Source: a virus
DNA length: 64,000 nt
Direction: 5' to 3' (one strand)
Virus record (IMG/VR): IMGVR_UViG_3300034069_001731
Location: 2,811-66,810 of that record
The translations under genes were made by a program, and so were the position numbers. Below, in pieces: positions 3,579 through 28,461 of this stretch (position 1 is the first letter of the stretch; every line of letters starts with the position of its first letter). Under the pieces are notes generated by a model that ran no database searches, was not told the origin of the DNA, and saw only the letters and a program-made list of their open reading frames with translations.

Positions 3579-4778
3579 ATGAGCACGTTCGAAGTTTCCG
3601 TCGTCCGGGTCACCGGAGTCGAAGATCATCCCAACGCGGATCGGCTGTCGCTGATCAACTTCCGCGGCTACACCACCATTTCGGCGAAGCTCGATGACGG
3701 CGGCCACCGCTACGCCGTCGGCGACCTCGTCGTTTACGTGCCGGAGCAGGCGATCGTGCCCGACGCGCTGCTGCGAGACGGCTTCTGGGATCCGATCAAG
3801 GACCGGCCCATCCTGGGTGGGTCGAACTACAACCGGGTGAAAGCGATCAAGCTGCGAGGCGTCGTCAGCCAGGGCATCATGTTCCCTGTCGATACCTCCT
3901 CGGTCGTCCCCAACGGGTTCGAGGGCGCCGTCTTCAACGGCTCCGAGATGAAGTTCGTAGCCGAGGGCGACGACGTCGCCGAGCACCTCGGCATCGTGAA
4001 GTACGAGCCCGCCCTGACGCCGGCCTTCCGCCGCCTCATCGCCGGCAACGTGTTCGACCTCGGCACCTACAACACGATCAGCTTCGACCTCGACAACTTC
4101 CAGAAGTACCCCTTCCTCCTGGACAACCCCGAGGAGGAGATCGTCCTCACGGAGAAGCTCCACGGCACCAACTGCCAGGTCGCCTACCTGCCCGGCCACA
4201 GCGAGCACGTCGGCTTCCTGGATCGTCCGCTCTTCGTCGGGTCCAAGGGGCAGTCGGCCAAGGGGCTCATGTTCAAGAACGACCACACCTCGGAGAAGAA
4301 CGTCTACGTCGACACCACCGTCCGCTCCGGGATCGCGGAGCGGTTCATGGACGTCTGCGACAGCCGCTGCGAGTATTTCAACGAGCCCTGCTACCTGCTC
4401 GGCGAGGTGATAGGCGAAGGTGTCCAGGACCTCGGCTATGGCGAGAGCGCGCCCACCTTCCGGGCCTTCGGCATGTACGTCGGAAAGCCGCGCGGCGCCG
4501 GCGGCCGCTGGCTGGACCGGGACGAGTTCGAGGACGTCTGTGCCGCTGCGGATATCCCGATGGCGCCGGTAGTCGCCCGCGGCAAGTGGGGCGCCATCGA
4601 GCCGAAGCTGTCCCTCTACCGGGACGGCAAGACGGTGACGGACGGCAACCACATCCGCGAGGGTGTCGTGATCGTGCCGGCGAAGGAGCGCAACCACTTC
4701 CGCTTCGGGCGCGTCGCGTTGAAGCACGTCAGCCCCGACTACCTGACCCGCAAGGGGAACGTCACCGAATTCGCGTGA
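3579..4778 (+). CDS. ATP-dependent RNA ligase, DRB0094/Rnl2-like family
   Basis: N-terminal HPNADRL and RVKAIKLRGVVSQG; motif I TEKLHGTN; GEVIG, FRAF, REGVV and LKHVSPDYL. Confidence 0.88.
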   Translation: MSTFEVSVVRVTGVEDHPNADRLSLINFRGYTTISAKLDDGGHRYAVGDLVVYVPEQAIVPDALLRDGFWDPIKDRPILGGSNYNRVKAIKLRGVVSQGIMFPVDTSSVVPNGFEGAVFNGSEMKFVAEGDDVAEHLGIVKYEPALTPAFRRLIAGNVFDLGTYNTISFDLDNFQKYPFLLDNPEEEIVLTEKLHGTNCQVAYLPGHSEHVGFLDRPLFVGSKGQSAKGLMFKNDHTSEKNVYVDTTVRSGIAERFMDVCDSRCEYFNEPCYLLGEVIGEGVQDLGYGESAPTFRAFGMYVGKPRGAGGRWLDRDEFEDVCAAADIPMAPVVARGKWGAIEPKLSLYRDGKTVTDGNHIREGVVIVPAKERNHFRFGRVALKHVSPDYLTRKGNVTEFA

Positions 4779-10440: not shown

Positions 10441-10456
10441 AGCGCATTTGTGCAAA
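10441..10456 (-). promoter_or_regulatory. Operator-like motif between tmRNA and nadM
   Basis: TTTGC-ACAAAT-GCGCT. Confidence 0.5.
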
Positions 10457-10527
10457 ACAGCGCTTGCGTCGGCATCCTTTTTGGCCGATACGGGTTCCCA
10501 CATTATCACGAATGCGCAGGAGGCTTG

Positions 10528-11613
10528 ATGCCCGCGATCGATGACCAGCGAGACGTCGACATGTGCGTCTTCATCGGGCGGTTCCGGCCGTTCCACAACG
10601 GCCACCTCTTCGTGGTGCGCGAGGCGCTCCGTCAGGCCAAGGTCCTCAAGATCCTGGTCGGATCGGCCAACCAGCCCCGGAGCCTTCGCAACCCCTTCAC
10701 CTTCCACGAGGTGCGGGAGATGATCTTCCGGTCGCTGACGCCCAGCGAGGCCTGCCGGGTCCACATCACGCCTCTTGAGGATGCGGACTATTCCGACGAA
10801 CTCTGGGTGCAGAGCGTGCAGTCGGCCGTGGGCGAAATGGTCCGCGCGCTCTACGGCGACAAGCCATTCCCCCGCGTCTCACTCATCGGCTACGCGAAAG
10901 ATCACACCTCATACTATCTCAAGCTGTTCCCGCAGTGGGCGTCGATCGGGGTGCCGCAGCACAAGACGCTGTCGGCGACGACGTTCCGGGAGGCGCTGTT
11001 CAAGGACTTCGGGCCGGACGGCTCCTTCATGCAGGGCGTAGACACCAGGGACCTGCCAGTCGGCACGTTCGAGTTCCTGACCGAGCAGTTCATCGGTACG
11101 CCGGCTTGGTGCGCGCTGGTCAAGGAGGCGGAAGCCGTCGAGGCCTACAAGGCGCAGTTCGCCGCCCTGCCCTACCCGCCGATCTTCGTGACGGTCGACA
11201 CCGTGGTCATCCAGTCCGGCCACGTCCTGATGATCAAGCGCGGCAAGAACCCGGGCGCCGGTCTCTGGGCGCTTCCCGGCGGCTACCTCAACGCCGACGA
11301 GCCCATTTCGGCCGGCTGGGTGCGGGAACTCGAAGAGGAGACCGGTCTCGTCTCGACCATCGGGGAACGCGCGGTGCGCGGATCACACGTCGCCACCAGC
11401 GTCTTCGACAACCCGCACCGCGATGACCGCGGTCGCATGATCACCCACGCGCACCTCGTCCACCTGCCACCCGGCCAGCTGCCGGCGGTCAAAGGCATGG
11501 ACGACGCGGTCGACGCGACGTGGATCCCTCTCGCTGCGCTCGACCGCCGCACGATCTTCGCCGATCATTACAGCATAATTCGCTCAATGGTAGCAAAGTC
11601 CCTCCAGTTCTGA
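10528..11613 (+). CDS. nadM: Bifunctional NMN adenylyltransferase / ADP-ribose pyrophosphatase (NadM-Nudix, NatV-like)
   Basis: GRFRPFHNGH (HxGH), GSAN, RNPF, LSAT and an intact Nudix box GYLNADEPISAGWVRELEEETGL. Confidence 0.93.
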   Translation: MPAIDDQRDVDMCVFIGRFRPFHNGHLFVVREALRQAKVLKILVGSANQPRSLRNPFTFHEVREMIFRSLTPSEACRVHITPLEDADYSDELWVQSVQSAVGEMVRALYGDKPFPRVSLIGYAKDHTSYYLKLFPQWASIGVPQHKTLSATTFREALFKDFGPDGSFMQGVDTRDLPVGTFEFLTEQFIGTPAWCALVKEAEAVEAYKAQFAALPYPPIFVTVDTVVIQSGHVLMIKRGKNPGAGLWALPGGYLNADEPISAGWVRELEEETGLVSTIGERAVRGSHVATSVFDNPHRDDRGRMITHAHLVHLPPGQLPAVKGMDDAVDATWIPLAALDRRTIFADHYSIIRSMVAKSLQF

Positions 11614-11623
11614 AGGCACACCT

Positions 11624-13261
11624 ATGTCGCACAACGGACTCACCACCGATCAGGCCAAGGCCGTCTGGGGCCCCGGCGAGCCCTCCTTCGAGCGCCACTC
11701 CGAGCGCTTCGAGCAGGTGAAGGCGGAGCGCAACGACGACACCACCATCGCCCTCGCCTGCGAGAAGCAGCGACTGAAGTTCCAGCAGGACAGCATCCGG
11801 CCGTCGCACGGGCTCGACACCTACGTCGCCGCGAAGCACGCCCCGGTCGCCCTGCTCCGCCACACCCTGGGCTTCAACAACCCGCTGCTCGACGTCGACA
11901 GCTACAAGGTCAGCCACAGCTACCAGTACCCGCCCGGCACCGAGCAGGTCTACAGCTACATCGAGTCTCGAGGCGGCGAGTTCGACAGCACGTTGTTCTT
12001 CGGCCTGCAGGTCTACCTGAAGCGCTGGCTCGCGAAGCCGATCAACCACGCCCAGATCCAGGAAGCCTCGGACTTCTACGAGGCGCACGGCGAGCCGTTC
12101 GACCGGACCATGTGGGATCACATCCTGGAGGCCCACGACGGCTTCCTGCCGATCGAGATCCGCGCCCTGCCCGAGGGCATCGTCGTCCCCGTCGGGACGG
12201 TGCTGGTGACGGTCACCAACACGGATTCGAAGTGCGCCGCCCTGGTCAGCTTTCTCGAGACGGCGCTGCTGCGCGCGGTCTGGTACCCGACCACGATCGC
12301 GACGCTGTCGCGGGAATGCAAGGTGCTGCTGAAGCGCGCCTTCGACCGCACGTCGGACGATCCCGCCGGCCTCGCGTTCAAGCTGCACGACTTCGGCGCC
12401 CGCGGCGTCTCCAGCCAGGAGTCTGCGGCGCTCGGCGGCATGGCCCACCTCATCAACTTCATGGGGTCCGACACCGTGTCCGGCATCCTCGCCGCGAACG
12501 AATACTACGGCGAGGCGATGGCCGGCTTCTCGATCCCGGCGTCGGAGCACTCCACCATCACGTCGTGGGGTCGCGACCACGAGGTCGATGCCTACCGGAA
12601 CATGCTGCAGATGTTCGGCGGCGGCCAGCTCGTGGCCAACGTGTCCGACAGCTACGACATCGACTACGCCGTGAGCGAGATTTTCGGCAAGGAGCTGCGC
12701 CAGGAGATCCTCGACATGGAGGCGACTCTGGTGGTGCGCCCCGACTCCGGCGACCCGGTCACGACTCCGATCCGTGTCGTCAAGATGCTCGACCACGCCT
12801 TCGGCCACACCGTGAACAGCAAGGGCTACAAGGTCCTGAACCCGAAGGTACGGGTGCTGCAGGGCGACGGCATCACCCTGTCGACGATCGGCCGCATCAT
12901 CTACTCGCTGACGGAACTCGAGGGCTACTCCATCGACAACCTCAGCTTCGGCATGGGCGGCGGCCTGCTCCAGCAGGTCAACCGGGACACGCAGAAGTTC
13001 GCGATGAAGTGCTCAGCGGTGAAGGTGGATGGCGTCTGGCGCGACGTCTACAAGGCCCCGGCCGGCCAGCCCGACAAGCGGTCCAAGCGCGGCCGGTTCC
13101 AGGTGGTCTCGAACGGCGCCCGCGGCTGGGATGTCGTGGCGGCCGACGACACCACGATCAACAAGGGCATGCTTCAGCCGGTCTGGTGCGACGGCAAGCT
13201 GAAGGCCGACGTCACCTTCAAGTTCGTCCGCGCCATGGCCGCGTCGTCCTTCAACGGCTGA
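11624..13261 (+). CDS. nadV: Nicotinamide phosphoribosyltransferase (NAMPT/NadV) with about 84-aa N-terminal extension
   Basis: LDVDSYK, YIESRGG, ETALLRAVWYPTT, LHDFGARG, SIPASEHS, VSDSYD, VRPDSGDP and QGDG. Confidence 0.95.
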   Translation: MSHNGLTTDQAKAVWGPGEPSFERHSERFEQVKAERNDDTTIALACEKQRLKFQQDSIRPSHGLDTYVAAKHAPVALLRHTLGFNNPLLDVDSYKVSHSYQYPPGTEQVYSYIESRGGEFDSTLFFGLQVYLKRWLAKPINHAQIQEASDFYEAHGEPFDRTMWDHILEAHDGFLPIEIRALPEGIVVPVGTVLVTVTNTDSKCAALVSFLETALLRAVWYPTTIATLSRECKVLLKRAFDRTSDDPAGLAFKLHDFGARGVSSQESAALGGMAHLINFMGSDTVSGILAANEYYGEAMAGFSIPASEHSTITSWGRDHEVDAYRNMLQMFGGGQLVANVSDSYDIDYAVSEIFGKELRQEILDMEATLVVRPDSGDPVTTPIRVVKMLDHAFGHTVNSKGYKVLNPKVRVLQGDGITLSTIGRIIYSLTELEGYSIDNLSFGMGGGLLQQVNRDTQKFAMKCSAVKVDGVWRDVYKAPAGQPDKRSKRGRFQVVSNGARGWDVVAADDTTINKGMLQPVWCDGKLKADVTFKFVRAMAASSFNG

Positions 13262-14789: not shown

Positions 14790-14805
14790 TTTGCATTCGT
14801 GAAAA
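14790..14805 (-). promoter_or_regulatory. Operator-like motif upstream of the NDT-like gene
   Basis: TTTTC-ACGAAT-GCAAA. Confidence 0.55.
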
Positions 14806-14820
14806 GCAATGCGCGAATGC

Positions 14821-15378
14821 TCAGCCGTCCTTGGGCGGCAGGGCGGCCTGCGCGGGCTCCGCGAAGTGATAGGGCGTCGGCTGTGTCGGCCGGCCATCGC
14901 CGGCGGTGCCCGGGTGTCCGGTTCCCTTGCCGGCGCCCTGCCCGTCCTGGCCGCCCTCCTTCATCGAGAAGCCGAACTTCTCACCGCCGTGCGTCTTGGC
15001 GTGCTGCTCCTGGGCGCGCTTCAGGGCGTCCATGAGGTCTTGGCTTGCCGGGAAGCTGTAGAGGCGCGGCTCCGCGCCCTTGCCCTCCTGCAACGTCAGC
15101 ACGACCCGCCCGTCGCCGAACGGCGTCGCCGACAGAACCACGGCGCCGTCACCCTTGAGATCGGGCCGGCTCCAGCCTGGGATGATGCCGACCGGCTTCG
15201 CAGATCCGGTCACGGCGTCGAGCCCGACGTAGGCGACCATGAGGCTCAGGGCCACGGTGAGCGGCGTCACGAAGCGCCAGCGCGACGGCGACCGAGCCGC
15301 GATAGCCGCGGTGGACAGCGTCGTCAGGGCGAAGGCGCCGCTGAGCAGGAAGAAGGTGTCGGGCGCCATGGCGATCAC
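14821..15378 (-). CDS. Membrane protein, third gene of the MotA/ExbB-like module
   Basis: Two N-terminal TM segments; GTG start overlaps the upstream TGA. Confidence 0.7.
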   Translation of the reverse strand: MIAMAPDTFFLLSGAFALTTLSTAAIAARSPSRWRFVTPLTVALSLMVAYVGLDAVTGSAKPVGIIPGWSRPDLKGDGAVVLSATPFGDGRVVLTLQEGKGAEPRLYSFPASQDLMDALKRAQEQHAKTHGGEKFGFSMKEGGQDGQGAGKGTGHPGTAGDGRPTQPTPYHFAEPAQAALPPKDG

Positions 15379-15971
15379 TGCATCATGGAGGACAGGAGGT
15401 GGTTCACGCTCGACGGCACGAGCTTGCCGGTGTCGTCGAGCCGGAAGTCGACCATCGTGGTCTCGTCACCGGCGTGCAGCACCGTGCTGCCCCTGATCGG
15501 TGCGATCACGGGATCGGCCTGGGGCCAGGCGACCTCGATCGAAACCGGAGCGTCCGGTGAGGATCCGTCGGCGACGTGGGAGCCGTAGTAGACGGCGTTG
15601 AACGTCCAGGCACCCGGGGTCAGGGAACGGGAGCAGATCGTCTCGAAGTGGTGGCTCGTGGTGTCGCCGTCATTGCCCATGTCGTCGCGCAGCAGATCCA
15701 TGTCCTTGCCCGACTTGTGCTTGTAGAAGACCACCTCGCCGGCCGGGTTGCGCGCCCAGAGGTCGAGGTCGACGTCGAGGGCATCGGGCCACTGCAGCGT
15801 CGCACACATCCGCCCCGGGTTGATGCCGGCCTGGCCGGCCGTCTCAGCCTTCAGGTGCGGCAGCATCGCCTGCAGCGCGAACATGGCGGCGAAGATGAAC
15901 ATGGCGTTGAAGAGGGTGTCGACGAACGCGATCCACGTCCCCTCGGCATCATCGTCGTTGAACAGCACCAT
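15375..15971 (-). CDS. MotB/ExbD-like single-TM protein with YfaP/DUF2135-like periplasmic domain
   Basis: TWIAFVDTLFNAMF TM segment with an intramembrane Asp; LQWPDALDVDLDLW motif; TAATG overlap with the upstream gene. Confidence 0.65.
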   Translation of the reverse strand: MVLFNDDDAEGTWIAFVDTLFNAMFIFAAMFALQAMLPHLKAETAGQAGINPGRMCATLQWPDALDVDLDLWARNPAGEVVFYKHKSGKDMDLLRDDMGNDGDTTSHHFETICSRSLTPGAWTFNAVYYGSHVADGSSPDAPVSIEVAWPQADPVIAPIRGSTVLHAGDETTMVDFRLDDTGKLVPSSVNHLLSSMMQ

Positions 15972-16594
15972 TAGAACGTCCCCCGATCGGAGCCGAGCGC
16001 GACGATGGATTGCAGCTCGCGGTCCGTGAGGTCTCCGGCCTTTCGCACGGGCGTCGCCGACCAGGCGCCACCGACGTCCTGCGTCATCAGCACGGAGTCG
16101 AGCCGCGCGAGCCGGCGCACCGACCAGCCCTGGATGAACACCATGATCTCGACCCAGAGCTTCGCGACGATGCCGACCAGTGTCGCGTTGAAGGCGGTCT
16201 TCATCGACGCCTTCATGGCGTTCAGCGTCGCCGTGATCCCGTCGGCGTTGGCAACGGAGCTGTCGGCCGCCATGTGGCTGACGAAGATCGACAGCCCGAC
16301 CAGCGTCCCGCAGAGGCCGAGGTAGAGGAAGACCTTGGCCTTGAGAAAGTTCGGGAAGGCCATGGCGGCCTCGATGGCGTGCTCGTCGTGCTGGTCCATC
16401 CGGTCGAACCGGTAGGTCTGCCACGTCGCATAGACGATGACCCCGACCAGCAGGGCGGCCGACACCCAGGTCAGCCGGCTGGCGTCCTCGACGAAGATGT
16501 TCTGGACGAGACCGAAGGCCCAGGCCATGCCGAGCGCGCCGAGGGCTGCCGTGTTGAACAGGGCGAGGTACAGGGACGTGATGTAGCGCGGCAT
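15971..16594 (-). CDS. MotA/TolQ/ExbB proton-channel family protein
   Basis: LGLCGTLVGL and TAFNATLVGI TM motifs; four predicted TM segments. Confidence 0.8.
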   Translation of the reverse strand: MPRYITSLYLALFNTAALGALGMAWAFGLVQNIFVEDASRLTWVSAALLVGVIVYATWQTYRFDRMDQHDEHAIEAAMAFPNFLKAKVFLYLGLCGTLVGLSIFVSHMAADSSVANADGITATLNAMKASMKTAFNATLVGIVAKLWVEIMVFIQGWSVRRLARLDSVLMTQDVGGAWSATPVRKAGDLTDRELQSIVALGSDRGTF

Positions 16595-16620
16595 TGGATC
16601 TTCCTCAGGGTCTCGAGGTA

Positions 16621-16636
16621 TTTGCATTCGTGCGCA
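16621..16636 (-). promoter_or_regulatory. Operator-like motif upstream of the MotA/ExbB-like gene
   Basis: TGCGC-ACGAAT-GCAAA. Confidence 0.55.
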
Positions 16637-16643
16637 GGTCGGG

Positions 16644-18623
16644 TCAGGCCGACGCCACGCTGAGTCGCGGTTTGTCCGCCCGGAAGCGGCCATCCTGGAG
16701 CGTGATGATGGCGCGCTGGCCGTCCGGGTAGTGGACGACGTGCGCGACGGCCCAGCTCGACGGGCCCTTGTTGTAGCCCTGGTGCAGGTTCATGCACCCG
16801 GCGACGTAGCAGCCCTCGGCGATCTCCGGGCTGTGCTTGTCGGCGATGGTCATCTTGCGGCCGGTCCGCATGAACCCCTGCACGGTGCCCTTGGACCCGT
16901 TGGTGCCGCGGAAGCCGTGATGACCGATCTCGATGCCGTCGAGCAGCCGGCTGGTGCCGTCGTAGGCCCACTCCACCTCTTCGGCGCTGCCGATGTAGGT
17001 GGTCAGCAGGGCGTGCTGCAGCAGCGAGAAACGCGGGGTCGGCAGCGCCAAGTCGAGCGCCTGGGCGACGGCTTCGCGATGACGCATGTAGGCGGTCTCG
17101 AGCCGAAGCCCAAGCATCGTATTGGCGCCGTCGTTTCGGTACCGCCCTTCCCTGACCCAGCGCTCCAGACCGATGTCGTGGTTCGATTCCACCACGATCG
17201 TCTTGCGGTCGGGGCTGTGCAGCGACAGCAGGAAGTCGCCGACGTCGCCGATTTCTTCCGACACCGAGTCCCTGCCCCGGATCGCCAGCTCGTAGCTGTA
17301 GGCGGAGTCGCCGAGGTGGTGGTGGTTGCGGGTCTCGTTGTCGAAGATGTCGTGCAGCACGACATGATGCGGGTTCAGGGTGTCGAGCAGGCTGCCCTTG
17401 TTGCGCACCGTGTGGCCGGGTGCGAAGCCGAAGGTCGCCAGGCTGTTCAGGGGATCGAGCTTGCGCAGGTGGACGTCGCCGGCCACCAGGGCCGCGGCGC
17501 GGTGCCCGGTCGTGACAACGCCGCCCGCGACACGGCGGTCGAGGTCGTAGAAGGAGCCATCCTCGTTGGCGGTCAGCTGACGGCAGAACACGCGGGAGCG
17601 CTCGTCGAACTCGACGAGGACGGCGCCGATCACCTGGTGGAAGAGCGACTTGATGCCGGCCTTGCGCGGGATGATCTTGGGCTTCGTCACCATGCCGGTC
17701 GTCATGACCTGGTGCGCCTGCTCGTTCGGATCCGTGGACGGGACCGACTTCAGCTGGCGCTTCGCATGCGGGAACACGGCCCACCGGTTGCGGCTGTAGG
17801 TCATGAGGTCGGACACCGGCTGCGACGCCGTGACGATCGTGTTCATCTCGCCGGCGAAGACGAAGTCGTCACCGACCGCGAGCTGCCCGAAGCACAGGTG
17901 CGGATGCAGCTCGACGGGGTAGTCGCGGGCCGCCGTGTTGGTCTCCGACCACCAGGACGTCTCGTAGGTCAGCGGGCCGACGACGATCTCGGCGCCGACG
18001 TGCAGCGCGAAAGCCTGGAGGTTCTGCCAGAAGGCCTCGTGCAGCTGGCCATCGTTCTGGGCCGCGGTGAAGATGAAGCGGCGGCCGGCCGCGTTGAGCA
18101 CGGGTTCGACGGTCAGCGTTTCGCTGAGCCAGGTCCTCGGGGTCGAGGCTTTGCGCTCGTATTCGCCGGTCCGCTTGTTGAACCGGCGCTTCATCGTGGT
18201 GTCGACCACGATGGCGGATGTGTTGTTGACGGGATAGTCGGATGACGTGACCAGCGTGACGATCTCGGCGCGCAGGTGGCGGGCGCGAGCGTCCAGGTCC
18301 TCGGGGACCTCTTCGATCACCACTTCGGGGATCGGCTTCACCCACGCGACATCCGAGGTCTGGGGTGGCGTGAAATCGGGGGCGTCACCGGAGTAGAGGC
18401 TCCAGTTCGGCAGAACGTACATGCGGCCGGTCTTGCGGCGGCGCTCCTCGTCCCGGATCCACCGGGCGTAGGTTCCGGACACCTTGCCGTCGGCCTTGTC
18501 GGCCTTCTCGGTCGCAGACCCCTTGCCGACGAGCAAGCGCAGCGGACCGTAGCCTTCCCGCAGAAAGGACTCGATCAGCTCGGCGCGGCGCAGGCGTTCG
18601 TCGAGGCTCAGCGGCTGGTACAT
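16644..18623 (-). CDS. Large metallophosphoesterase-fold phage protein (tentatively T5 A1-like)
   Basis: AGDVH, LHDIFD, VESNHD, HHGFRG and DKHS metal-binding-type motifs; the A1 assignment is from recollection only. Confidence 0.55.
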   Translation of the reverse strand: MYQPLSLDERLRRAELIESFLREGYGPLRLLVGKGSATEKADKADGKVSGTYARWIRDEERRRKTGRMYVLPNWSLYSGDAPDFTPPQTSDVAWVKPIPEVVIEEVPEDLDARARHLRAEIVTLVTSSDYPVNNTSAIVVDTTMKRRFNKRTGEYERKASTPRTWLSETLTVEPVLNAAGRRFIFTAAQNDGQLHEAFWQNLQAFALHVGAEIVVGPLTYETSWWSETNTAARDYPVELHPHLCFGQLAVGDDFVFAGEMNTIVTASQPVSDLMTYSRNRWAVFPHAKRQLKSVPSTDPNEQAHQVMTTGMVTKPKIIPRKAGIKSLFHQVIGAVLVEFDERSRVFCRQLTANEDGSFYDLDRRVAGGVVTTGHRAAALVAGDVHLRKLDPLNSLATFGFAPGHTVRNKGSLLDTLNPHHVVLHDIFDNETRNHHHLGDSAYSYELAIRGRDSVSEEIGDVGDFLLSLHSPDRKTIVVESNHDIGLERWVREGRYRNDGANTMLGLRLETAYMRHREAVAQALDLALPTPRFSLLQHALLTTYIGSAEEVEWAYDGTSRLLDGIEIGHHGFRGTNGSKGTVQGFMRTGRKMTIADKHSPEIAEGCYVAGCMNLHQGYNKGPSSWAVAHVVHYPDGQRAIITLQDGRFRADKPRLSVASA

Positions 18624-19408
18624 CAGCGCGCCGCCACGGTGGTGTTCGGGGAGCCGAACTCGGGCAGCCCGGCCTTGGCCAGGAAGCTGCGCACGGTCGA
18701 CATCTGGATGACGATGCCCATGTGGGGGACGCCGCCGCCCTGGGTGGTCTCGATGGCTTCCGGAACGCCGAACAGCACGTAGTGGCCGCCGCGGCGGACA
18801 TAGGCGCCGCCGCCCGAGTTGCCGCCGATGATGGGCGCCGAGATCATGGTGTGCATCTCGGCGCCACCCTCGCCGTCGCCGACCGTCTCGAGCGACGCCA
18901 GCCCTTCCGTGATGAAGGGTCGGTTGCCGAGACCGCCGCCGGCCGCGTAGACGGACTCGGTCATGTCGACTTGGTCGTCCGGGCCGATGAAGCGCGCGGG
19001 CTCGGCCGAGAACTCGGGGTCGTCGATCCTGATGAGGGCGAGGTCGTGCGTGGCGTCGTCAGCCACCAGCGTCGCCGTCGCGATGAGCGGCAGCGCGTTC
19101 CGGCGGCCCTTGATGAACAGCCAGTTCCGGACCACGACGTCGAGCGGCCCGACCTGTCCGGCCTCGGCCATCTTCTGTTCCGCCGGGGCGAGGACGTGGT
19201 GGTTGGTCAGAATGAAGGTGCCGTCCGGGCCGCTGTGGACCACGGTTCCTGACCCGCGGGCCGGCGGGGCATCGATGCGGAAGCTCGGGTTCAGCATGTC
19301 GAACTTGCGGAGCGTGATGTCGTCCTTGGGGCCGAAGGCCGCGTAGGCCGAAACTCCCAGGACCGCGACGCAGGCCGCGACTGTGCTGTTGATGAGCTTG
19401 TTCCGCAT
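18623..19408 (-). CDS. Secreted trypsin-like serine protease
   Basis: Signal peptide; GSG, TNHHV (His), HDLALI (Asp) and GGNSGGG (Ser). Confidence 0.88.
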   Translation of the reverse strand: MRNKLINSTVAACVAVLGVSAYAAFGPKDDITLRKFDMLNPSFRIDAPPARGSGTVVHSGPDGTFILTNHHVLAPAEQKMAEAGQVGPLDVVVRNWLFIKGRRNALPLIATATLVADDATHDLALIRIDDPEFSAEPARFIGPDDQVDMTESVYAAGGGLGNRPFITEGLASLETVGDGEGGAEMHTMISAPIIGGNSGGGAYVRRGGHYVLFGVPEAIETTQGGGVPHMGIVIQMSTVRSFLAKAGLPEFGSPNTTVAAR

Positions 19409-19446
19409 CGGTGGTATCCCCTTCTGCCGTCGGGCGTAGCACAGGT

Positions 19447-19484
19447 TTTGCAGAAAAGCAAATCCTGTGCTGCATTCGCGCAAA
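19447..19484. promoter_or_regulatory. Two operator-like motifs upstream of the protease gene
   Basis: TTTGC-AGAAAA-GCAAA (19447-19462) and GCTGC-ATTCGC-GCAAA (19469-19484). Confidence 0.6.
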
Positions 19485-19982
19485 TCAGAAGGTAGCGCGA
19501 GGGCTGGGGATGGTCGGAACATCGACCGGAACGAGCCAGAAACTCCGCCACCCGGCGAACCAGATCTTGATGTTGAGGTCGAACCGCTCGTCGGCCTTGG
19601 CATCATACGGCAGCTTCACGCACAGATCGCGCGCGATGCCTTCGCCGACGGGGCGGGCACCGTTGCGATGCCAGGGCTGGCCGGTGTCGCGGTTGATGAG
19701 GTCGGGGAACGTCCGGTCGCCGGTGCCGGGACGGTCGAGGAGAACATCCACGTTTTCGAGGCGGGCGAGCCGGTGCTTGTCACCGGTCCAGCGGAAGCAG
19801 ATCTGATCGCTGTCGCGAGTGACCGTGGCAGCGTCGATCTGGATGTTGTCGATGACGGGGTCCAGGTATGACTCGACCCGGCCCCCGAACAGGGTGCTGA
19901 GGCAAATGACGAGCGCCACCATGGCCCCGGTCAGCCAGGTCAGCGCGACCGTCAGCAGGACATGCCTGCCGCGGTCAGTCAT
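19485..19982 (-). CDS. Membrane-anchored hypothetical protein of the lysis cassette
   Basis: N-terminal TM segment; overlaps the upstream gene. Confidence 0.7.
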   Translation of the reverse strand: MTDRGRHVLLTVALTWLTGAMVALVICLSTLFGGRVESYLDPVIDNIQIDAATVTRDSDQICFRWTGDKHRLARLENVDVLLDRPGTGDRTFPDLINRDTGQPWHRNGARPVGEGIARDLCVKLPYDAKADERFDLNIKIWFAGWRSFWLVPVDVPTIPSPRATF

Positions 19983-21031: not shown

Positions 21032-21682
21032 TCAAGCCTTTCGGGCGAGGGACTTCAGGAGGGCGCCGACGAAGCTGAAGAAGCTCGGCTTCACCGCGGC
21101 GACCGGGGTGGTCGCGACGGCGGGCGCCGGAGCGGCGACGGGAGTGATCACAGGGCTCGTGGGAGCCGCGCTGGCGGGCTTCGCAGCCGCGGGGACAGCA
21201 GGAGCCACGATGGGCTTGGCGTCCGTGGTGGGCCGCGGCAGGGCCTTGGTGTAGGGCGTCAGGAACTGGAGGCGTTCCGCTTCGCGCCGGGTGATCAGGA
21301 CCTTGTCCTTCTCCCACATCGAGAAGGCATCCGCGGCGCCCTTGCGGTCACCGGCGTTGAGCTTGCGCACCACGGTGGAGTGGGCGACCCCGAACTGGCC
21401 GATGTTATAGCAGAGGCTCACGAGCGCATCGAACTCGTGGTCCTCGAGCGGCACCGTCACGCAGTCGCGCACGGTGGCCTCATATTTGGCGAGGTCGTGC
21501 GAGAACAGCGCATCGGCCTGGGCCTGGGTCAGGGTGACGCCGGCTGCCGGGATCGGGGCGCCGGCCGCGGCCGTATGGCCGACGCCGATCGTCCAGACGC
21601 CCTTGGAGTCGCGGTACGCGACGAGCCTCTCACCCTCACGGATTTCGAGAACGGCGCGCCCGATCGGGCTGGTGATTTGCAT
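21032..21682 (-). CDS. Endolysin, GH24 lysozyme with Pro/Ala linker and amphipathic C-terminus
   Basis: EGERLVAYRDSKGVWTIGVGHT (E-x8-D-x5-T triad) and FDALVSLCYNIG. Confidence 0.93.
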   Translation of the reverse strand: MQITSPIGRAVLEIREGERLVAYRDSKGVWTIGVGHTAAAGAPIPAAGVTLTQAQADALFSHDLAKYEATVRDCVTVPLEDHEFDALVSLCYNIGQFGVAHSTVVRKLNAGDRKGAADAFSMWEKDKVLITRREAERLQFLTPYTKALPRPTTDAKPIVAPAVPAAAKPASAAPTSPVITPVAAPAPAVATTPVAAVKPSFFSFVGALLKSLARKA

Positions 21683-23706: not shown

Positions 23707-26700
23707 TCAGCCGACGTCGTGATCGACGTCGTGGACTCGCGTCGACATGTGGCGGTCCATCTCGCGCCCCACGGACCTCGCGTGCTGGTCCGGGTCCGAG
23801 ACCTGGCTGTAGAAGTTCAGGTGGTGGTGGTGATGAACTTCCTTGGTGGCTGCGGAACCACCGCCGGCCGAGCCGCCGGCATCAGGGCTGTCGCCCGCCC
23901 CGTTCTCGGCGTCGCGATGCGCCGTGGGACGGTCGGAGGTCGGAACGCGCTTGGCGATCTCCTCCGGAGTCTTGGCGTCGCCGAGGCTCTTGGGAACCTT
24001 GGCGGTCACCTGCTTCGCCGCGGCGGTCACGGCCTCGTTGGACCGGCGGAGATCGGCGATCATGCCGACCTTCTCCCAGTTCATCGAGACCTTGTCGCCG
24101 TAGTTGCCGGAGACCATCTGGACAGCAGTGATGTTGCCATCCTTGTCCGTCTTGGTCTTGCCGGTGGCGAAGCCGACGTGACCGACGTGATCGCCGTGGC
24201 TCTCCTCGATCACATCACCCTTCTGCACGTCCTTGTTGTCGACGTGCTGGCCCCATCCGCTGAAGGACCGGGCCATGGCGGAGCCGGAACCCTTGATCCC
24301 GGACTTCGCCAGCGTCCCGTTCACGAAGTCGGCGCACCATTCGCCGGCATGCATGATGTGCTTCAGGGACGTCGCGGCCTGGCGCTCGTTGTAGCCCATC
24401 ATCCCCATGGCCGAGTCGACCGCGTCACCCTGGCGGCCGGAGCCGCCCGGGGACACGCCGCTCGGCGCCGAGTTGTCGACCGTGGCGCCGCCGGGCGTGC
24501 CGGCAAAGGCCGTGTCAGCGAACTTGTCGCGCGAAGCGTAGTTCTTCACGCCAGCCCGCTCGAAGGACTGCTCCCAGGCCCGGACCGCACCCTTGCGGGT
24601 CGTCTGGCCCTTGACGGCGAGGATGGCCCTCGCGGTCTCGGGATCCCCTTCGGTGAGGTAGCGCCAGGACGCTTCGTCCGAGGTCGGGTTGAGGTTGTGA
24701 GCCTTGGTCCAGGACTCGAACGCCCTGCGGCGCGGTCCCGTCCACTGCGCCCAGCCGACGCCGCCCTTGGCCGACGCCTGACCACCTTCATGATAGGCCG
24801 TGAAGCCGGCCGACTCGTGACCGAGGTTGCCGACAACGCCGGCTGCCTGCTCACGGGTGAGGCCGTACTTCTTCATCAGCCCGTCCATGATGACGGGGGC
24901 CTTGGCGGCGAACTTCGATCCCATCTTGCCGAGCGACACCTTGGGGCCGATCTCTCGGGCGTCTCCGGTGCCGGGGGTCGATCCACCATGGCCGTAGCGC
25001 ATGTTGGGCGTCCCGCCGCCGATGGCGCCGCCGACGCGGCCGTGTCGCAGGTTCGGGCGTTCGTCGCCACCGCCACCGCCTCCGGAACCGGCGTCACCGC
25101 CAGCACCGCCGAGCGAAGCCGTCTGCAGCAGCATCCTGATGGCCTGCAGCTCGATCTTGAGGTCGCGGACGGCCCTTTCGGTGCCGACCGTGGCGTCCTT
25201 GATCGCGAGGCCGGCGCCGGATGGCAGGTACTCCTGTCGGCTCATCGCCCCGGGACGGAAGCTCGACGCATCACCGACGGCGCCGCCCGTCGCGAAGAGC
25301 GGGATCGGACGGCCAGCGTTGAGGGCTTCGAGCACCGGCAGATTGCGGGCGGTCGCGGCGGCGTTCACGACGAACTCGCCGTTGGACACCCGGGCCACGA
25401 TGGAGTCGGAACGACCACCACCGGGACCCGAGATGAGACCGCCGTCGGCGAAGTGCATCACCCGCCGCGCGGTCTCGAAGAAGCCGGGCTGCGGCATCTG
25501 CGGGCCCTGCTGGAGCTGGCGCATCTGCTCCGGCGACAGGAACTCGTGCCAGGTTTCTGGCTGATCCCGCCGAGAGGGCGGGACCTGCTTCAGGAGGTCG
25601 TTCCTGATCACCGTGTCGGGACGGCCGCCGGTGCCGCGGATGGTGCCTTCGGCCATGGGCGACGGGGCGCCGAAGCCGAAGAACTCCTTGATGCCCTCCC
25701 AGTTCATGACCGTGACGCCGATCACAGCTGCGGCAGCGACAGCACCGATGGTGATCGGAGCTGCTGCGATCGCGGCGGCGATGCCGGCGCCGAGGGCGGC
25801 GAAGCCCCCTGCCCCAGCTGCGGCGCCACCCGCGGTACCCGCGGCTTCCGTGAGGCCCGCAATGGCGCCGAGCGCCTTGATGCCGGTGAAGACGTCCTTG
25901 ATCAGCAGGAGACCGTTGGTCACTGCCGACATGATGCCGATGACCGGCGACAGCAGATGCAGGGCCGCCGAGAGTCCGAGGATCTCGGTCGCCCACCGCC
26001 CCATGGTCTCGGCATCGCCGGACCCGGACAGCTTCGCGATCATGTCGAAGGCCCAGTGCATGTCATCGAAGAGGGACCGGATCCCCTCACCGACGCCCCG
26101 GAGGAAGTCGGCGACGGCGTGGCCCTTGAAGCCCTCGGCGAGGTCGAGGATGGCCTTCTTGATGTCGCGGATGCCGAGGCCGTCGATGAAGGCCTGCACA
26201 GCCTCACGCACCTTGCCGCGGACATCGTCACTCGTCAGGCTGGCCGTGATCTGCGTCCAGGCTTCAGAGATCGGAGCCAGGACGAGATCCTTGATCGGCT
26301 CGCCGATCTGGTAGTCGATGACCTTCATACCGGCTTCGAGTCGGCCGAGCATGACGCTCATGCTCTTCGACCAGATCTCCCACTTCTCGGTGAGGTAGTC
26401 CTGGCCGTCGGCCTGCTTCGACAGCTCGCGGGCCTTCTCGATGTACTTCTTGGAGCCCTCGGGATCCGCCGCGATTTCAGCCGCGGCAGCACCGGCGCCT
26501 TCGCCGAAGCCGGCGCCCTGCATGATCAGCTTGGCCTTGTCGGGCCCGAGTTTCCCGACGCGTCCAAAGAAGTCGATGATGCCCGCGGCGCCGGATTTCA
26601 GCGCCTGGGTCATCGCCTGGATGTTGTCGTAGCCGAGGTCCTTGGGGGCGTTAGCGAGTGCCGCGCCCTGCGGGTTCGTGATGGGATCGTAGCTGTTGAG

Positions 26701-28461
26701 GGCCGAGAAGTATTTGCCCTCGAGGTTCGGCGCCACCTCGGAGATCTGGCCGAGGATGCGGGCGTCGTACTGACCGGTCCGGGCACCCTTACCGCCGAAC
26801 AGGGCGGCGAGGCCCATGGTGTCGTACTGATCGAGGCCCAGCTCCTTGCCGCGACCGATACCACCCGCCGCCAGGAACTCGTCCGACTTCTGGGCAGTCA
26901 TGCCGCCGTAGTTGGACATGCCGGCGTCGACGTTCAGGAACTTGCGGATCCCGTCGGCGTTCGTGATCTCCTTGGTGGACACCAGCTGCTGGATGGCTTC
27001 CGCCATGTTGTGAGCCAGCTTTTCGGAGTCCTCACCCATGGCGCCGGCCGCCTTGGGGATCATGTCCATCATGTCCTTCGACATCGCTTCCGGGACGCCG
27101 GAACGGATGGACTCGGACACGATGTCGATGAGGTGGTCGGCATCGACGCCGTATTTCAGGCTGGCGTTCATGGCGCCGCGGTTCAGCTCGTTCGAGTCCG
27201 CGCTGATCACGCTCCGCGGAGTGCCCTGCTTGAAGCCGAACATCTCGTACTTGGTCTTGGCGGTGTCCTGCGTCAGCGTGCTCTTCATGACACGGGACAG
27301 CTCGAGCAGCGCCGTCGTCATCGACGCCATGGCCAGGAAGGCCGGCGAGGTGAAGAACGGGTGCGACATCGAGTGGATGCCGTGGCGGATGTGCTTGCCG
27401 GCACTCTTGGCGCTGCCCCAGGCCTTGCCCTTGGCGGCGTTGTAGAGGCGCTCCCGGGCGTTGGCCTTGATCTTTTCTTCGGCGGCCCGGCGCTTGGCCG
27501 CGGCCTCTTCGGACCGGACGCGCATGCGCTCGAGGCGCTCGCTGCGCTCCATGATCCGCATCTGCCGGTTCAGCGGCCCGTATGTCGCCTTGTCCTTGGC
27601 GGCGGCGGCGCGCTTCTCAGCGGCCTCGGTGCCACGACGGATCCGGTTCTTGGACCTGAACGCGGTGAAGCCCTTGCTCAGGGCGAGATCTTCCTGACGC
27701 TTCGCGAGGGCATCCTGCCTGCGCTGAGCGGACTCCGTGGTCCGTTTGATGCGGGCGCTGGTGCGATAGCCGGTGAAGCCGCTGCGCATCGCGGCGTCGC
27801 TGTCGCGCTGCTCCTTGGCTTCGGAGCGGCGGCGGATCCCCATGCGGAGACGGCCGTTGCGGAAGACCGACGCATCGACGTACCCGGTGCGGGCGGAGCG
27901 GCCGGCCTTGCGTTCCTCGACCTCGCGGGCTTTGGCGATCTCGAGCTGCGCCGACAGGCGGCGGCGATGTTCGCGGGTGCGCGCGACGGCGAGTTCGGAC
28001 TCCTTGTCGCCGATCTGTTCCAGAAGGTCGACCTCGGCCCCGTGGGCCCGGTTGACCATGACCTGGGCGGCACGCTGCGCCTTCAGCATGTCGACGGCGG
28101 CCTTCTTTAGCTTCACCTGGCCGCCAGTGACGGATCCGAGCGTGCTGTCGAGCTTGTTGAGGCCGGCATTGAGGTCGGACGCCCACTTGTTGAAGGTGCC
28201 GCCCTCGACGTGGCGCTTGGCTTCCTTGAGCTTGCTGTTCAGCCCCTTGTCGAGGTTGACCCCGAGGGTCTTCACGGCCTTGTTGATGTTGCCGAACTGC
28301 TCGACCGACTTCAGGCTCGGGGCGATGTTGGAAACCTTCTGGGCTTCCTTCAGTCGCCGGGTCAGCCCGATGATCTCGCGATCGGTCTTCGAGAATGCCG
28401 CCTCGGTATGCGAGGAGGCGGCGATCTCGAGTTCCATCCTCAGGTTGTTGCTGTCGCTCAC
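23707..28461 (-). CDS. Tape measure protein with phage-tail lysozyme and CHAP/NlpC-like domains
   Basis: 1584 aa Ala/Gly-rich; FADGG..SGPG..RSDSI.ARVSNGEFV; AAGVVGNLGHES...GWAQWTG; WCADFV...GHVGF...GNY. Confidence 0.92.
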   Translation of the reverse strand: MSDSNNLRMELEIAASSHTEAAFSKTDREIIGLTRRLKEAQKVSNIAPSLKSVEQFGNINKAVKTLGVNLDKGLNSKLKEAKRHVEGGTFNKWASDLNAGLNKLDSTLGSVTGGQVKLKKAAVDMLKAQRAAQVMVNRAHGAEVDLLEQIGDKESELAVARTREHRRRLSAQLEIAKAREVEERKAGRSARTGYVDASVFRNGRLRMGIRRRSEAKEQRDSDAAMRSGFTGYRTSARIKRTTESAQRRQDALAKRQEDLALSKGFTAFRSKNRIRRGTEAAEKRAAAAKDKATYGPLNRQMRIMERSERLERMRVRSEEAAAKRRAAEEKIKANARERLYNAAKGKAWGSAKSAGKHIRHGIHSMSHPFFTSPAFLAMASMTTALLELSRVMKSTLTQDTAKTKYEMFGFKQGTPRSVISADSNELNRGAMNASLKYGVDADHLIDIVSESIRSGVPEAMSKDMMDMIPKAAGAMGEDSEKLAHNMAEAIQQLVSTKEITNADGIRKFLNVDAGMSNYGGMTAQKSDEFLAAGGIGRGKELGLDQYDTMGLAALFGGKGARTGQYDARILGQISEVAPNLEGKYFSALNSYDPITNPQGAALANAPKDLGYDNIQAMTQALKSGAAGIIDFFGRVGKLGPDKAKLIMQGAGFGEGAGAAAAEIAADPEGSKKYIEKARELSKQADGQDYLTEKWEIWSKSMSVMLGRLEAGMKVIDYQIGEPIKDLVLAPISEAWTQITASLTSDDVRGKVREAVQAFIDGLGIRDIKKAILDLAEGFKGHAVADFLRGVGEGIRSLFDDMHWAFDMIAKLSGSGDAETMGRWATEILGLSAALHLLSPVIGIMSAVTNGLLLIKDVFTGIKALGAIAGLTEAAGTAGGAAAGAGGFAALGAGIAAAIAAAPITIGAVAAAAVIGVTVMNWEGIKEFFGFGAPSPMAEGTIRGTGGRPDTVIRNDLLKQVPPSRRDQPETWHEFLSPEQMRQLQQGPQMPQPGFFETARRVMHFADGGLISGPGGGRSDSIVARVSNGEFVVNAAATARNLPVLEALNAGRPIPLFATGGAVGDASSFRPGAMSRQEYLPSGAGLAIKDATVGTERAVRDLKIELQAIRMLLQTASLGGAGGDAGSGGGGGGDERPNLRHGRVGGAIGGGTPNMRYGHGGSTPGTGDAREIGPKVSLGKMGSKFAAKAPVIMDGLMKKYGLTREQAAGVVGNLGHESAGFTAYHEGGQASAKGGVGWAQWTGPRRRAFESWTKAHNLNPTSDEASWRYLTEGDPETARAILAVKGQTTRKGAVRAWEQSFERAGVKNYASRDKFADTAFAGTPGGATVDNSAPSGVSPGGSGRQGDAVDSAMGMMGYNERQAATSLKHIMHAGEWCADFVNGTLAKSGIKGSGSAMARSFSGWGQHVDNKDVQKGDVIEESHGDHVGHVGFATGKTKTDKDGNITAVQMVSGNYGDKVSMNWEKVGMIADLRRSNEAVTAAAKQVTAKVPKSLGDAKTPEEIAKRVPTSDRPTAHRDAENGAGDSPDAGGSAGGGSAATKEVHHHHHLNFYSQVSDPDQHARSVGREMDRHMSTRVHDVDHDVG

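Follow-up and report, generated by a model that had tools for sequence, protein, structure and literature searches.

Ion-driven motors with a 5:2 arrangement of subunits power flagella, gliding, Ton uptake, Tol-Pal maintenance of the envelope and the Zorya defence, all of them cellular systems. Within the ZorA-ZorB core of Zorya the ion-selectivity filter is made up of Thr147 and Ser184 of ZorA, beside the essential Asp26 of ZorB (PMC11946911). Related in design to what is considered here are Asp-bearing ‘transpore helices’ (TPH) fused to periplasmic domains of non-OmpA type (von Willebrand factor A, vWA) beside TolQ-like genes (PMC12204202), and ‘generic ion transporters’ carrying DUF appendages (PMC12505986); no phage-borne copies were found described in either of these two papers. 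The subject of this account is a trio of adjoining genes, here termed A, B and C, in viral DNA. The stretch analysed, referred to as the window, comprises 64,000 nt, positions 2,811–66,810 of IMGVR_UViG_3300034069_001731, a 72-kb IMG/VR viral contig whose completeness is estimated at ∼60%. In our judgment the trio is likely to represent, in a copy borne by a phage, a widespread branch, as yet without a name, of the MotA/ExbB-MotB/ExbD superfamily of ion-driven motors that consists of three proteins, and to operate by the mechanism proposed below.

Because of its structural genes (the content includes portal, large terminase, major head protein, tail sheath and tail fibre) and because its closest cultured relatives by DNA-level comparison (blastn) are Bradyrhizobium phage BDU-MI-1 and next A1-bearing Rhizobium phages, the window is, on gene content, taken to be from a high-GC (66%) myovirus of an alphaproteobacterium. 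The trio occupies 14821–16594, as three minus-strand open reading frames (ORFs) arranged head to tail, each with strong third-position GC bias. As translated, gene A (15971–16594) specifies 207 amino acids with four transmembrane (TM) segments, gene B (15375–15971) specifies 198 amino acids with an acidic N-terminus, one TM segment and a beta domain, and gene C (14821–15378) specifies a two-TM protein of either 185 amino acids from GTG 15378 or 182 from ATG 15369. A is preceded by the ribosome-binding site GAGGAAG (16600–16606, minus strand). An earlier sequence-only reading of this DNA described three membrane genes coupled by overlaps. The TAATG at 15969–15973, in which the stop of A and the start of B are combined, is real; the GTGA overlap of B with C is conditional, since it holds only with the start of C at GTG 15378, and the public gene call (P0012) has C beginning at ATG 15369, 182 amino acids long and five bases past the B stop. 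Whichever C start is used, the spacing is such that A, B and C are to be regarded as tightly coupled.

On profile evidence A is a remote but real relative of MotA, TolQ and ExbB, a minimal four-TM channel subunit; the sequence-only reading had likewise taken it for a MotA/ExbB-like protein. It is the family context that settles this identity. The Pfam family MotA_ExbB (PF01618) is matched independently by 7 of 10 A homologues, with the Skermanella aerolata orthologue, at 35.2 bits versus a cutoff of 22.9, passing outright. An 88-sequence profile of A searched against PDB sequences found MotA (8GQY; 1.9e-7), ZorA (6e-7), TolQ (1e-4), ExbB (2e-4) and then PomA, the E values running from 1.9e-7 to 3e-3 and the sole non-motor protein in that range being a designed helical protein, TMH4C4. 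The ESM Atlas model of A superposes on a 181-amino-acid viral cluster (TM-score 0.73/0.82), 95% of whose members carry PF01618. ZorA features repeatedly: its NCBIfam model matches A at E 6e-7, it ranks first among solved structures when a smaller, 10-sequence A profile is used, and PADLOC run on the trio gave weak ZorA-core matches for A, with none for B or C. Depth of profile mattered, as PDB searches with 4-sequence profiles yielded nothing useful. None of the three proteins has a PHROGs family, and the same is true of their homologues in phage 16-3, RHph_N34 and one T4-like contig.

Both of the channel motifs picked out from the letters alone, GLxGTxxG and AFxxTxxG, are present in A. The first is LGLCGTLVG, residues 92–100 in TM3 (16295–16321, minus strand), and the second is AFNATLVG, residues 134–141 in TM4 (16172–16195, minus strand). 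Alignment of hidden Markov models (HMMs) places Thr97 of the former on ZorA Thr147 of the ion filter and Thr138 of the latter on ZorA Ser184, giving a conserved Thr/Ser in each of the last two TM helices; Thr138 is conserved at ≥90% among the 88 sequences. The cytoplasmic parts of A are small, with ∼26 amino acids in the loop between TM2 and TM3 and a C-terminal tail of ∼50.

From alignments and models, B appears to be a MotB/ZorB-like Asp-bearing helix fused to an acidic beta-sandwich resembling TerD, PPC and DUF2135 domains, and not to an OmpA or ExbD domain. Its TM helix spans amino acids 14–37, with Asp18, in the motif AFVDTLF, near the cytoplasmic end; the Asp18 codon (15918–15920, minus strand) specifies the candidate proton-carrying residue. 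Conservation of this Asp in homologues had been set beforehand as a test, and it proved to be invariant in the four close homologues and conserved at ≥90% in a 140-member alignment. A profile from those 140 sequences aligns the N-terminus and the Asp with ZorB residues 14–62, Asp18 falling on Asp26 (E 0.16); among solved structures, no motor B subunit other than ZorB is matched by this profile. MotB_plug is matched by 3 of the 140 homologues (best E 0.0087). The acidic N-terminus and single Asp-bearing helix that had been remarked on before any search was made are therefore as described, with the Asp at the ZorB Asp26 position. Neither the window protein nor the 140 homologues match an OmpA- or ExbD-type Pfam domain, and NCBIfam has no match for B or C.

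The remainder of B, residues ∼50–198 (15378–15824, minus strand), is a predicted periplasmic beta-sandwich, in which W61, D68, D70, D96 and E110 are invariant throughout the 140-member alignment; it may bind Ca2+. The B profile also matches (E 0.018) a beta-jelly-roll that Ca2+ stabilises in Tk-SP, a subtilisin-like protease of Thermococcus. Comparison of the AlphaFold2 (AF2) monomer model, whose outer domain is all-beta, with known structures by VIA gave the TerD-type 2qz7 (Z 7.0), 2kxt (Z 6.1) and Tk-SP (3afg; Z 5.6, with 30% identity over 79 residues), Z values of 7.0 and below being in the range that the tool calls common and possibly generic. Foldseek of the same model against the PDB found generic beta-sandwiches only, none at E ≤ 0.001. 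The sequence-only reading had labelled this part YfaP/DUF2135-like in place of an OmpA peptidoglycan-binding domain. The lack of an OmpA domain stands and the label is fair, if unproven: DUF2135 (PF09906) gives sub-threshold matches in 10 of the 140 family members (best E 1.3e-4), the window B protein has no Pfam match, DUF2135 included, and the nearest named ESM Atlas clusters are DUF2135/PPC (0.80–0.81), which is a lead only. The sandwich profile (positions ∼50–176) also matches within frames of ∼1000–1300 amino acids in other Pseudomonadota (G201, G244, G256, G154, G364 and G314), which may be large YfaP/DUF2135-type proteins.

C has two hydrophobic segments, at amino acids 6–24 and 37–57, and a soluble part after them, as had been noted from its translation. 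Its predicted layout is that of a TM hairpin, a small beta-rich periplasmic domain, a helix and a Gly/Pro-rich tail, and the family consensus has a basic hairpin loop W-x-R-R, a periplasmic block GIYLWL...EPRxYxLPW, the helix and a C-terminal FYxxPQPxxPxK. In the window the conserved C-terminal proline motif is PYHFAEPAQAALPPK (14830–14874, minus strand), of which P172 is near-invariant. Homologues of C occur wherever homologues of B do. The suggestion that C might be a TonB/TolA-like transducer found no sign in its favour and has been set aside: there are two TM segments with a His in neither, there is no helix of the SHLS/His type, and no TonB_C or TolA domain was detected in 68 homologues or in the PDB profile search. 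A weak lead is that C could be a ComEC-like DUF4131 module, as collinear matches to DUF4131, the ComEC N-terminal module, occur in 8 of the 68 homologues, the best at 17.8 bits versus a threshold of 31.6.

How large a family is involved depends on how it is sought. Word-indexed searches, which returned two to three relatives for each trio protein (two for B), greatly understated its size; an exhaustive HMMER search with B brought the count to 1540 clusters at E ≤ 1e-3, of which 958 reached E ≤ 1e-10; almost all are full length, at 185–225 amino acids. When the ORFs of every locus fetched were searched with HMMs for A, B and C, A lay directly upstream and C downstream of B in 52 of the 65 phage-context loci with B, and A and C flanked B in 75 of 80 bacterial loci (the best 80 of at least 588), so that the proposal that the three genes go together is borne out by synteny. 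Seven loci apparently lacking A carry a divergent four-TM form of it, 136–160 amino acids long, most of the others are contig ends, and one (L005) has an unrelated 89-amino-acid gene in place of A. Could the trio nevertheless be no functional unit, but chance ORFs or decaying genes? That B and C are without family matches is the one thing in its favour. The codon-position GC bias is strong in all three frames, homologues are full length and number in the hundreds to thousands, and gene order is conserved; the idea is hardly credible, and the homologue and synteny data already refute it.

The viruses bearing the trio are very different from one another. They include A1-bearing myoviruses (the window and locus L003), a 347-kb jumbo phage (L004, IMGVR_UViG_3300020202_000061), T4-like phages where the trio adjoins gp32, UvsW and UvsY, the T4-like Rhizobium phage RHph_N34, in which it is gp145–147, and the temperate Sinorhizobium phage 16-3 (L010), in which it is p038, p040 and p042. 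The cultured phages found to have it are all Rhizobium and Sinorhizobium phages, and the viral loci span 34–68% GC. The trio of phage 16-3 is split by p039 (L010 3612–3902; 96 amino acids, soluble) and p041 (4432–4617; 61 amino acids, membrane). Directly upstream of the jumbo-phage trio, at L004 4415–5338, are genes for four tandem paralogous two-TM proteins of 77–109 amino acids.

A scan of bacteria that took a single genome from each species turned up at least 588 loci for the trio, mostly on alphaproteobacterial chromosomes. Gene-neighbour counts are from the best 80 of these, all of which are from Alphaproteobacteria (Azospirillum, Skermanella, Stellaceae, Geminicoccaceae, Kiloniellales, Xanthobacteraceae, Roseomonas and others). 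Run on genomes sampled evenly across the phylum, the B profile matched 20 of 401, ∼14 of them at full length. The Skermanella trio operon is located between genes for ABC transporters, a CBS protein and a hybrid histidine kinase, and phage genes are absent there. Azospirillum species have two paralogous trios at separate loci; synteny by tblastx, noisy among bacterial loci at their GC content, was relied on only within Azospirillum. Two full trios 5–7 kb apart occur on single alphaproteobacterial contigs (L115, 7184–9079 and 14634–16523; L141, 7292–9116 and 12752–14848). A FastTree phylogeny of 134 B sequences, approximate given its long branches and biased bacterial sampling, has the bacterial copies as one short-branched cluster following taxonomy, and the trio appears to be vertically inherited in bacteria. 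Phage copies are long-branched and basal, with the window B grouping with L003 and T4-like contigs. The depth and diversity of the phage sequences in the tree argue against a recent capture of the trio from a host. To call the machine phage-owned, as the sequence-only reading did, is right in that many phages have copies of their own; it overlooks the bacterial loci, of which at least one, that of Skermanella, is in a non-prophage context.

What might such a trio do? We propose that A, as the channel subunit, is arranged in a ring in the inner membrane of the host and that the single helix of B, with Asp18, inserts into the ring as a proton-carrying axle. Proton flow past Asp18, Thr97 and Thr138 would cause ring and axle to move relative to each other, presumably by rotation and in a 5:2 assembly like that of the known motors. 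Since A has no cytoplasmic output domain, the work would be delivered into the periplasm, via the acidic, probably Ca2+-binding sandwich of B and via C, the topology being that predicted from the TM segments. Structure prediction for an A4B2 assembly (A 1–165 and B 1–55, with alignments) scored 0.15 versus a mark of 0.32, and gives no verdict on binding either way.

A number of results weigh against a motor. The window A protein on its own scores 19.9 bits against MotA_ExbB (E 6.5e-4), below the curated cutoff of 22.9, and its AF2 monomer (pLDDT, the predicted local-distance score, 54) is of low confidence, too poor for a fold search. The B matches to ZorB and MotB_plug given above are weak, and confidence in the B monomer is modest (pLDDT 61.6, ∼70 in the sandwich). 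For C there is no recognisable relative by Pfam, PDB-profile or PHROG searches. No published description of the trio or its function, in phages or bacteria, was found in the literature searched, which agrees with the earlier remark that no function was known for such a phage module. The association with a protease, dealt with below, is limited to ∼1/5 of viral loci, all 80 bacterial trios being without it. Finally, to our knowledge all characterised A subunits of 5:2 motors use or possess a cytoplasmic domain, and with A lacking one the complex could be a gated channel instead of a motor.

This last point leads to the thought that the trio is a gated ion leak, with C and the beta-sandwich as its gate, which dissipates the proton-motive force at a given moment so as to time lysis, exclude superinfecting phage DNA or shut off the host. 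Unplugged MotAB and ExbBD leak protons, A offers hardly any cytoplasmic domain to push on, and a lysozyme gene and small membrane proteins are encoded 1.4–3 kb upstream. However, a harmful leak is not expected to be kept in Azospirillum and relatives as a vertically inherited chromosomal operon in two paralogous copies, and the large conserved periplasmic domains suggest an external partner. We regard a leak as improbable.

A different possibility starts from the same stripped-down proteins: A and B may poison the 5:2 motors of the host by mixing or competing with them. The sensor of the Zorya defence, Tol-Pal, Ton or the chromosomal trio of the host would be the targets, and the phage trio an anti-defence or host-takeover device. 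ZorA is second only to MotA for the full A profile and first for the 10-sequence one, and ZorB is the sole motor match of B. Lacking the ZorA tail in A and the peptidoglycan-binding domain in B, the pair is without output domains; moreover, phage trio proteins are shorter than their bacterial counterparts, and the cassette adjoins early-type genes and an NAD-salvage pair. Against such interference, phages have kept the whole trio, including C and the elaborate periplasmic domain of B with its invariant acidic residues, which points to an autonomous machine, and the phage B sequences are, as noted, too deep and diverse for recent host captures. A decoy is in our opinion unlikely.

The DNA around the trio in the window is informative about how phages carry it. 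A promoter-like 12-mer, TTTGCATTCGTG at 16621–16632 (CACGAATGCAAA in gene sense, minus strand), is 27 nt upstream of the A start. A second copy at 14790–14801, also on the minus strand, is just past C and before a nucleoside deoxyribosyltransferase-like gene, at the downstream edge of the cassette. Allowing ≤2 mismatches there are 11 copies in the window versus 2.75 expected, a number reached in 0 of 100 shuffles. They are at 2422, 3553, 10507, 14790, 16621, 21676, 21693, 46088, 54726, 56466 and 56497; 9 of the 11 are 10–40 nt upstream of start codons, and in gene sense TTG often precedes the motif. The 12-mer is enriched in L003 too, and BDU-MI-1 has it upstream of A1 and between A1 and the next gene. 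With 11 copies in the window, mostly before start codons, it is probably a phage-wide promoter or regulatory element. The ‘own operator-like site’ of the sequence-only reading is thus a real motif, though not a private one: it is genome-wide, with a copy before the very next gene.

Upstream of the trio is a gene for a 659-amino-acid protein resembling the T5 A1 ‘DNA transfer protein’ (16644–18623, minus strand; phrog_1745, E 2.6e-153, with blastn matches to the A1 genes of Bradyrhizobium and Rhizobium phages), and upstream of that, one for a Trypsin_2 serine protease (18623–19606, minus strand; Pfam) with an N-terminal hydrophobic anchor or signal. Gene order in the window is protease, A1, trio, deoxyribosyltransferase-like gene and dNMP kinase; that in BDU-MI-1 is A1, a 155-amino-acid gene and dNMP kinase, with neither trio nor protease, and L003 has protease, A1 and trio. 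Since BDU-MI-1 is without the trio and protease, and since the 12-mer is at both edges of the trio, the trio in phages is, as gene order has it, an accessory cassette, recurrently paired with a membrane-anchored or secreted protease. In 13 viral loci the gene immediately upstream of A is for a homologous Trypsin_2 protease; in one lineage, that of L037 (1242–2342) and L038 (1506–2609), the protease gene is inside the module, as C-protease-A-B, and in phage 16-3 it is p036 (L010 2151–3050). From this recurrence the protease is a likely functional associate of the trio. We envisage a cassette with its own copy of the promoter-like motif, which phages would have acquired together with a periplasmic trypsin-like protease.

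The A1-like gene, by contrast with the protease, is a neighbour upstream and, by its distribution, outside the conserved module. Its presence raises the question of whether trio and A1 together help phage DNA across the periplasm and the inner membrane, by pulling it in or letting it pass, with C supplying a ComEC-like TM hairpin and an OB-type domain. The trio is directly downstream of A1 in the window, in L003 and probably in two short contigs, and the DUF4131 matches in C homologues are collinear. Those matches are, however, far below threshold, most phages with the trio (T4-like, 16-3 and the jumbo phage) have no A1 beside it, and neither have bacteria. Furthermore, products of genes expressed after infection would come too late for first entry, unless transfer is in two steps as in T5. 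A part in DNA entry seems very unlikely to us.

Other features of the window deserve mention in their own right. A gene for a NUDIX plus cytidylyltransferase-like protein (10450–11613, plus strand) adjoins one for nicotinamide phosphoribosyltransferase (11624–13261, plus strand; NAMPT_N and NAPRTase domains); by domain content the two are a phage NAD+ salvage pair, which resembles the Nampt plus NMNAT/Nudix NAD-reconstitution pathway that phages use against NAD-depleting defences. A 1584-amino-acid protein (23707–28461, minus strand) with a Phage_lysozyme2 domain at residues 1191–1319 is probably a tape-measure protein with a built-in wall hydrolase, and there is a separate Phage_lysozyme gene at 21032–21682.

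Returning to the motor, its most likely job would be to use energy to remodel, or keep watch on, the envelope of the host while it is infected. For phages, early-type neighbours and the protease suggest active modification of the envelope, in which protease and motor would co-operate. For bacteria, vertical conservation argues for a function in envelope housekeeping or stress, and not for a toxic leak or a classic defence island. A bolder version, which is possible and which we hold only tentatively, doubting it on balance, is that many phage lineages carry a viral 5:2-type proton-driven motor, often with a co-acquired periplasmic protease, that works mechanically on the host envelope, for instance by pulling on or clearing receptors or the tethers between outer membrane and wall, and that the same machine is an unrecognised alphaproteobacterial envelope system alongside Tol and Ton. 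Should the trio prove to work as a motor, viruses would for the first time be seen to bring such a machine with them; infection would have an energised periplasmic step absent from current models, and abundant soil and aquatic Alphaproteobacteria, in which the trio is conserved as it is in those very different phages, would have an unstudied envelope system. As Sinorhizobium phage 16-3 (p038–p042) and Azospirillum brasilense carry it, the trio is open to experiment.

Where, then, does the trio stand among the systems with which this account opened? With the ZorA-ZorB core of Zorya (PDB 8QYD; PMC11946911) it shares a four-TM A protein, conserved Thr/Ser at the ion-filter positions of A, and in B the acidic N-terminus and the helix with its Asp on Asp26. 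It differs in being without the long cytoplasmic tail of ZorA and the peptidoglycan-binding domain of ZorB, and in having a third membrane subunit, C. Genes for ZorC, ZorD or other effectors are missing from its surroundings, its neighbours being A1, the protease and genes of nucleotide metabolism. It is also phage-borne, and its bacterial copies appear to be vertically inherited and not to sit in defence islands. The TolQ-TolR-TolA and ExbB-ExbD-TonB motors are similar in having a channel subunit, a one-helix Asp subunit and, third, a membrane protein whose periplasmic part is extended and rich in proline, in the matches of the A profile to TolQ and ExbB, and in an output into the periplasm, if that proposed here for the trio is correct. 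However, the A of the trio has four TM segments, not three, and no cytoplasmic bundle, the sandwich of B is not the TolR/ExbD fold, and C has two TM segments and no SHLS/His helix. As to the MotA-MotB and PomA-PomB stators, MotA (8GQY) is the top PDB match of A, the four-TM topology is the same and a few B homologues match MotB_plug, but the trio is without the torque-generating cytoplasmic domain, the OmpA-like domain and the flagellar context. The TPH-vWA proteins and generic ion transporters share with it the principle of a TolR/MotB-like Asp helix joined to a non-canonical periplasmic domain and encoded beside a TolQ/MotA-like gene; the sandwich of the trio is TerD/PPC/DUF2135-like and not vWA, and there is an additional two-TM subunit. 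The trio would extend the range of ion-driven motors by a branch that is compact and in which both the periplasmic head and the third subunit are new.

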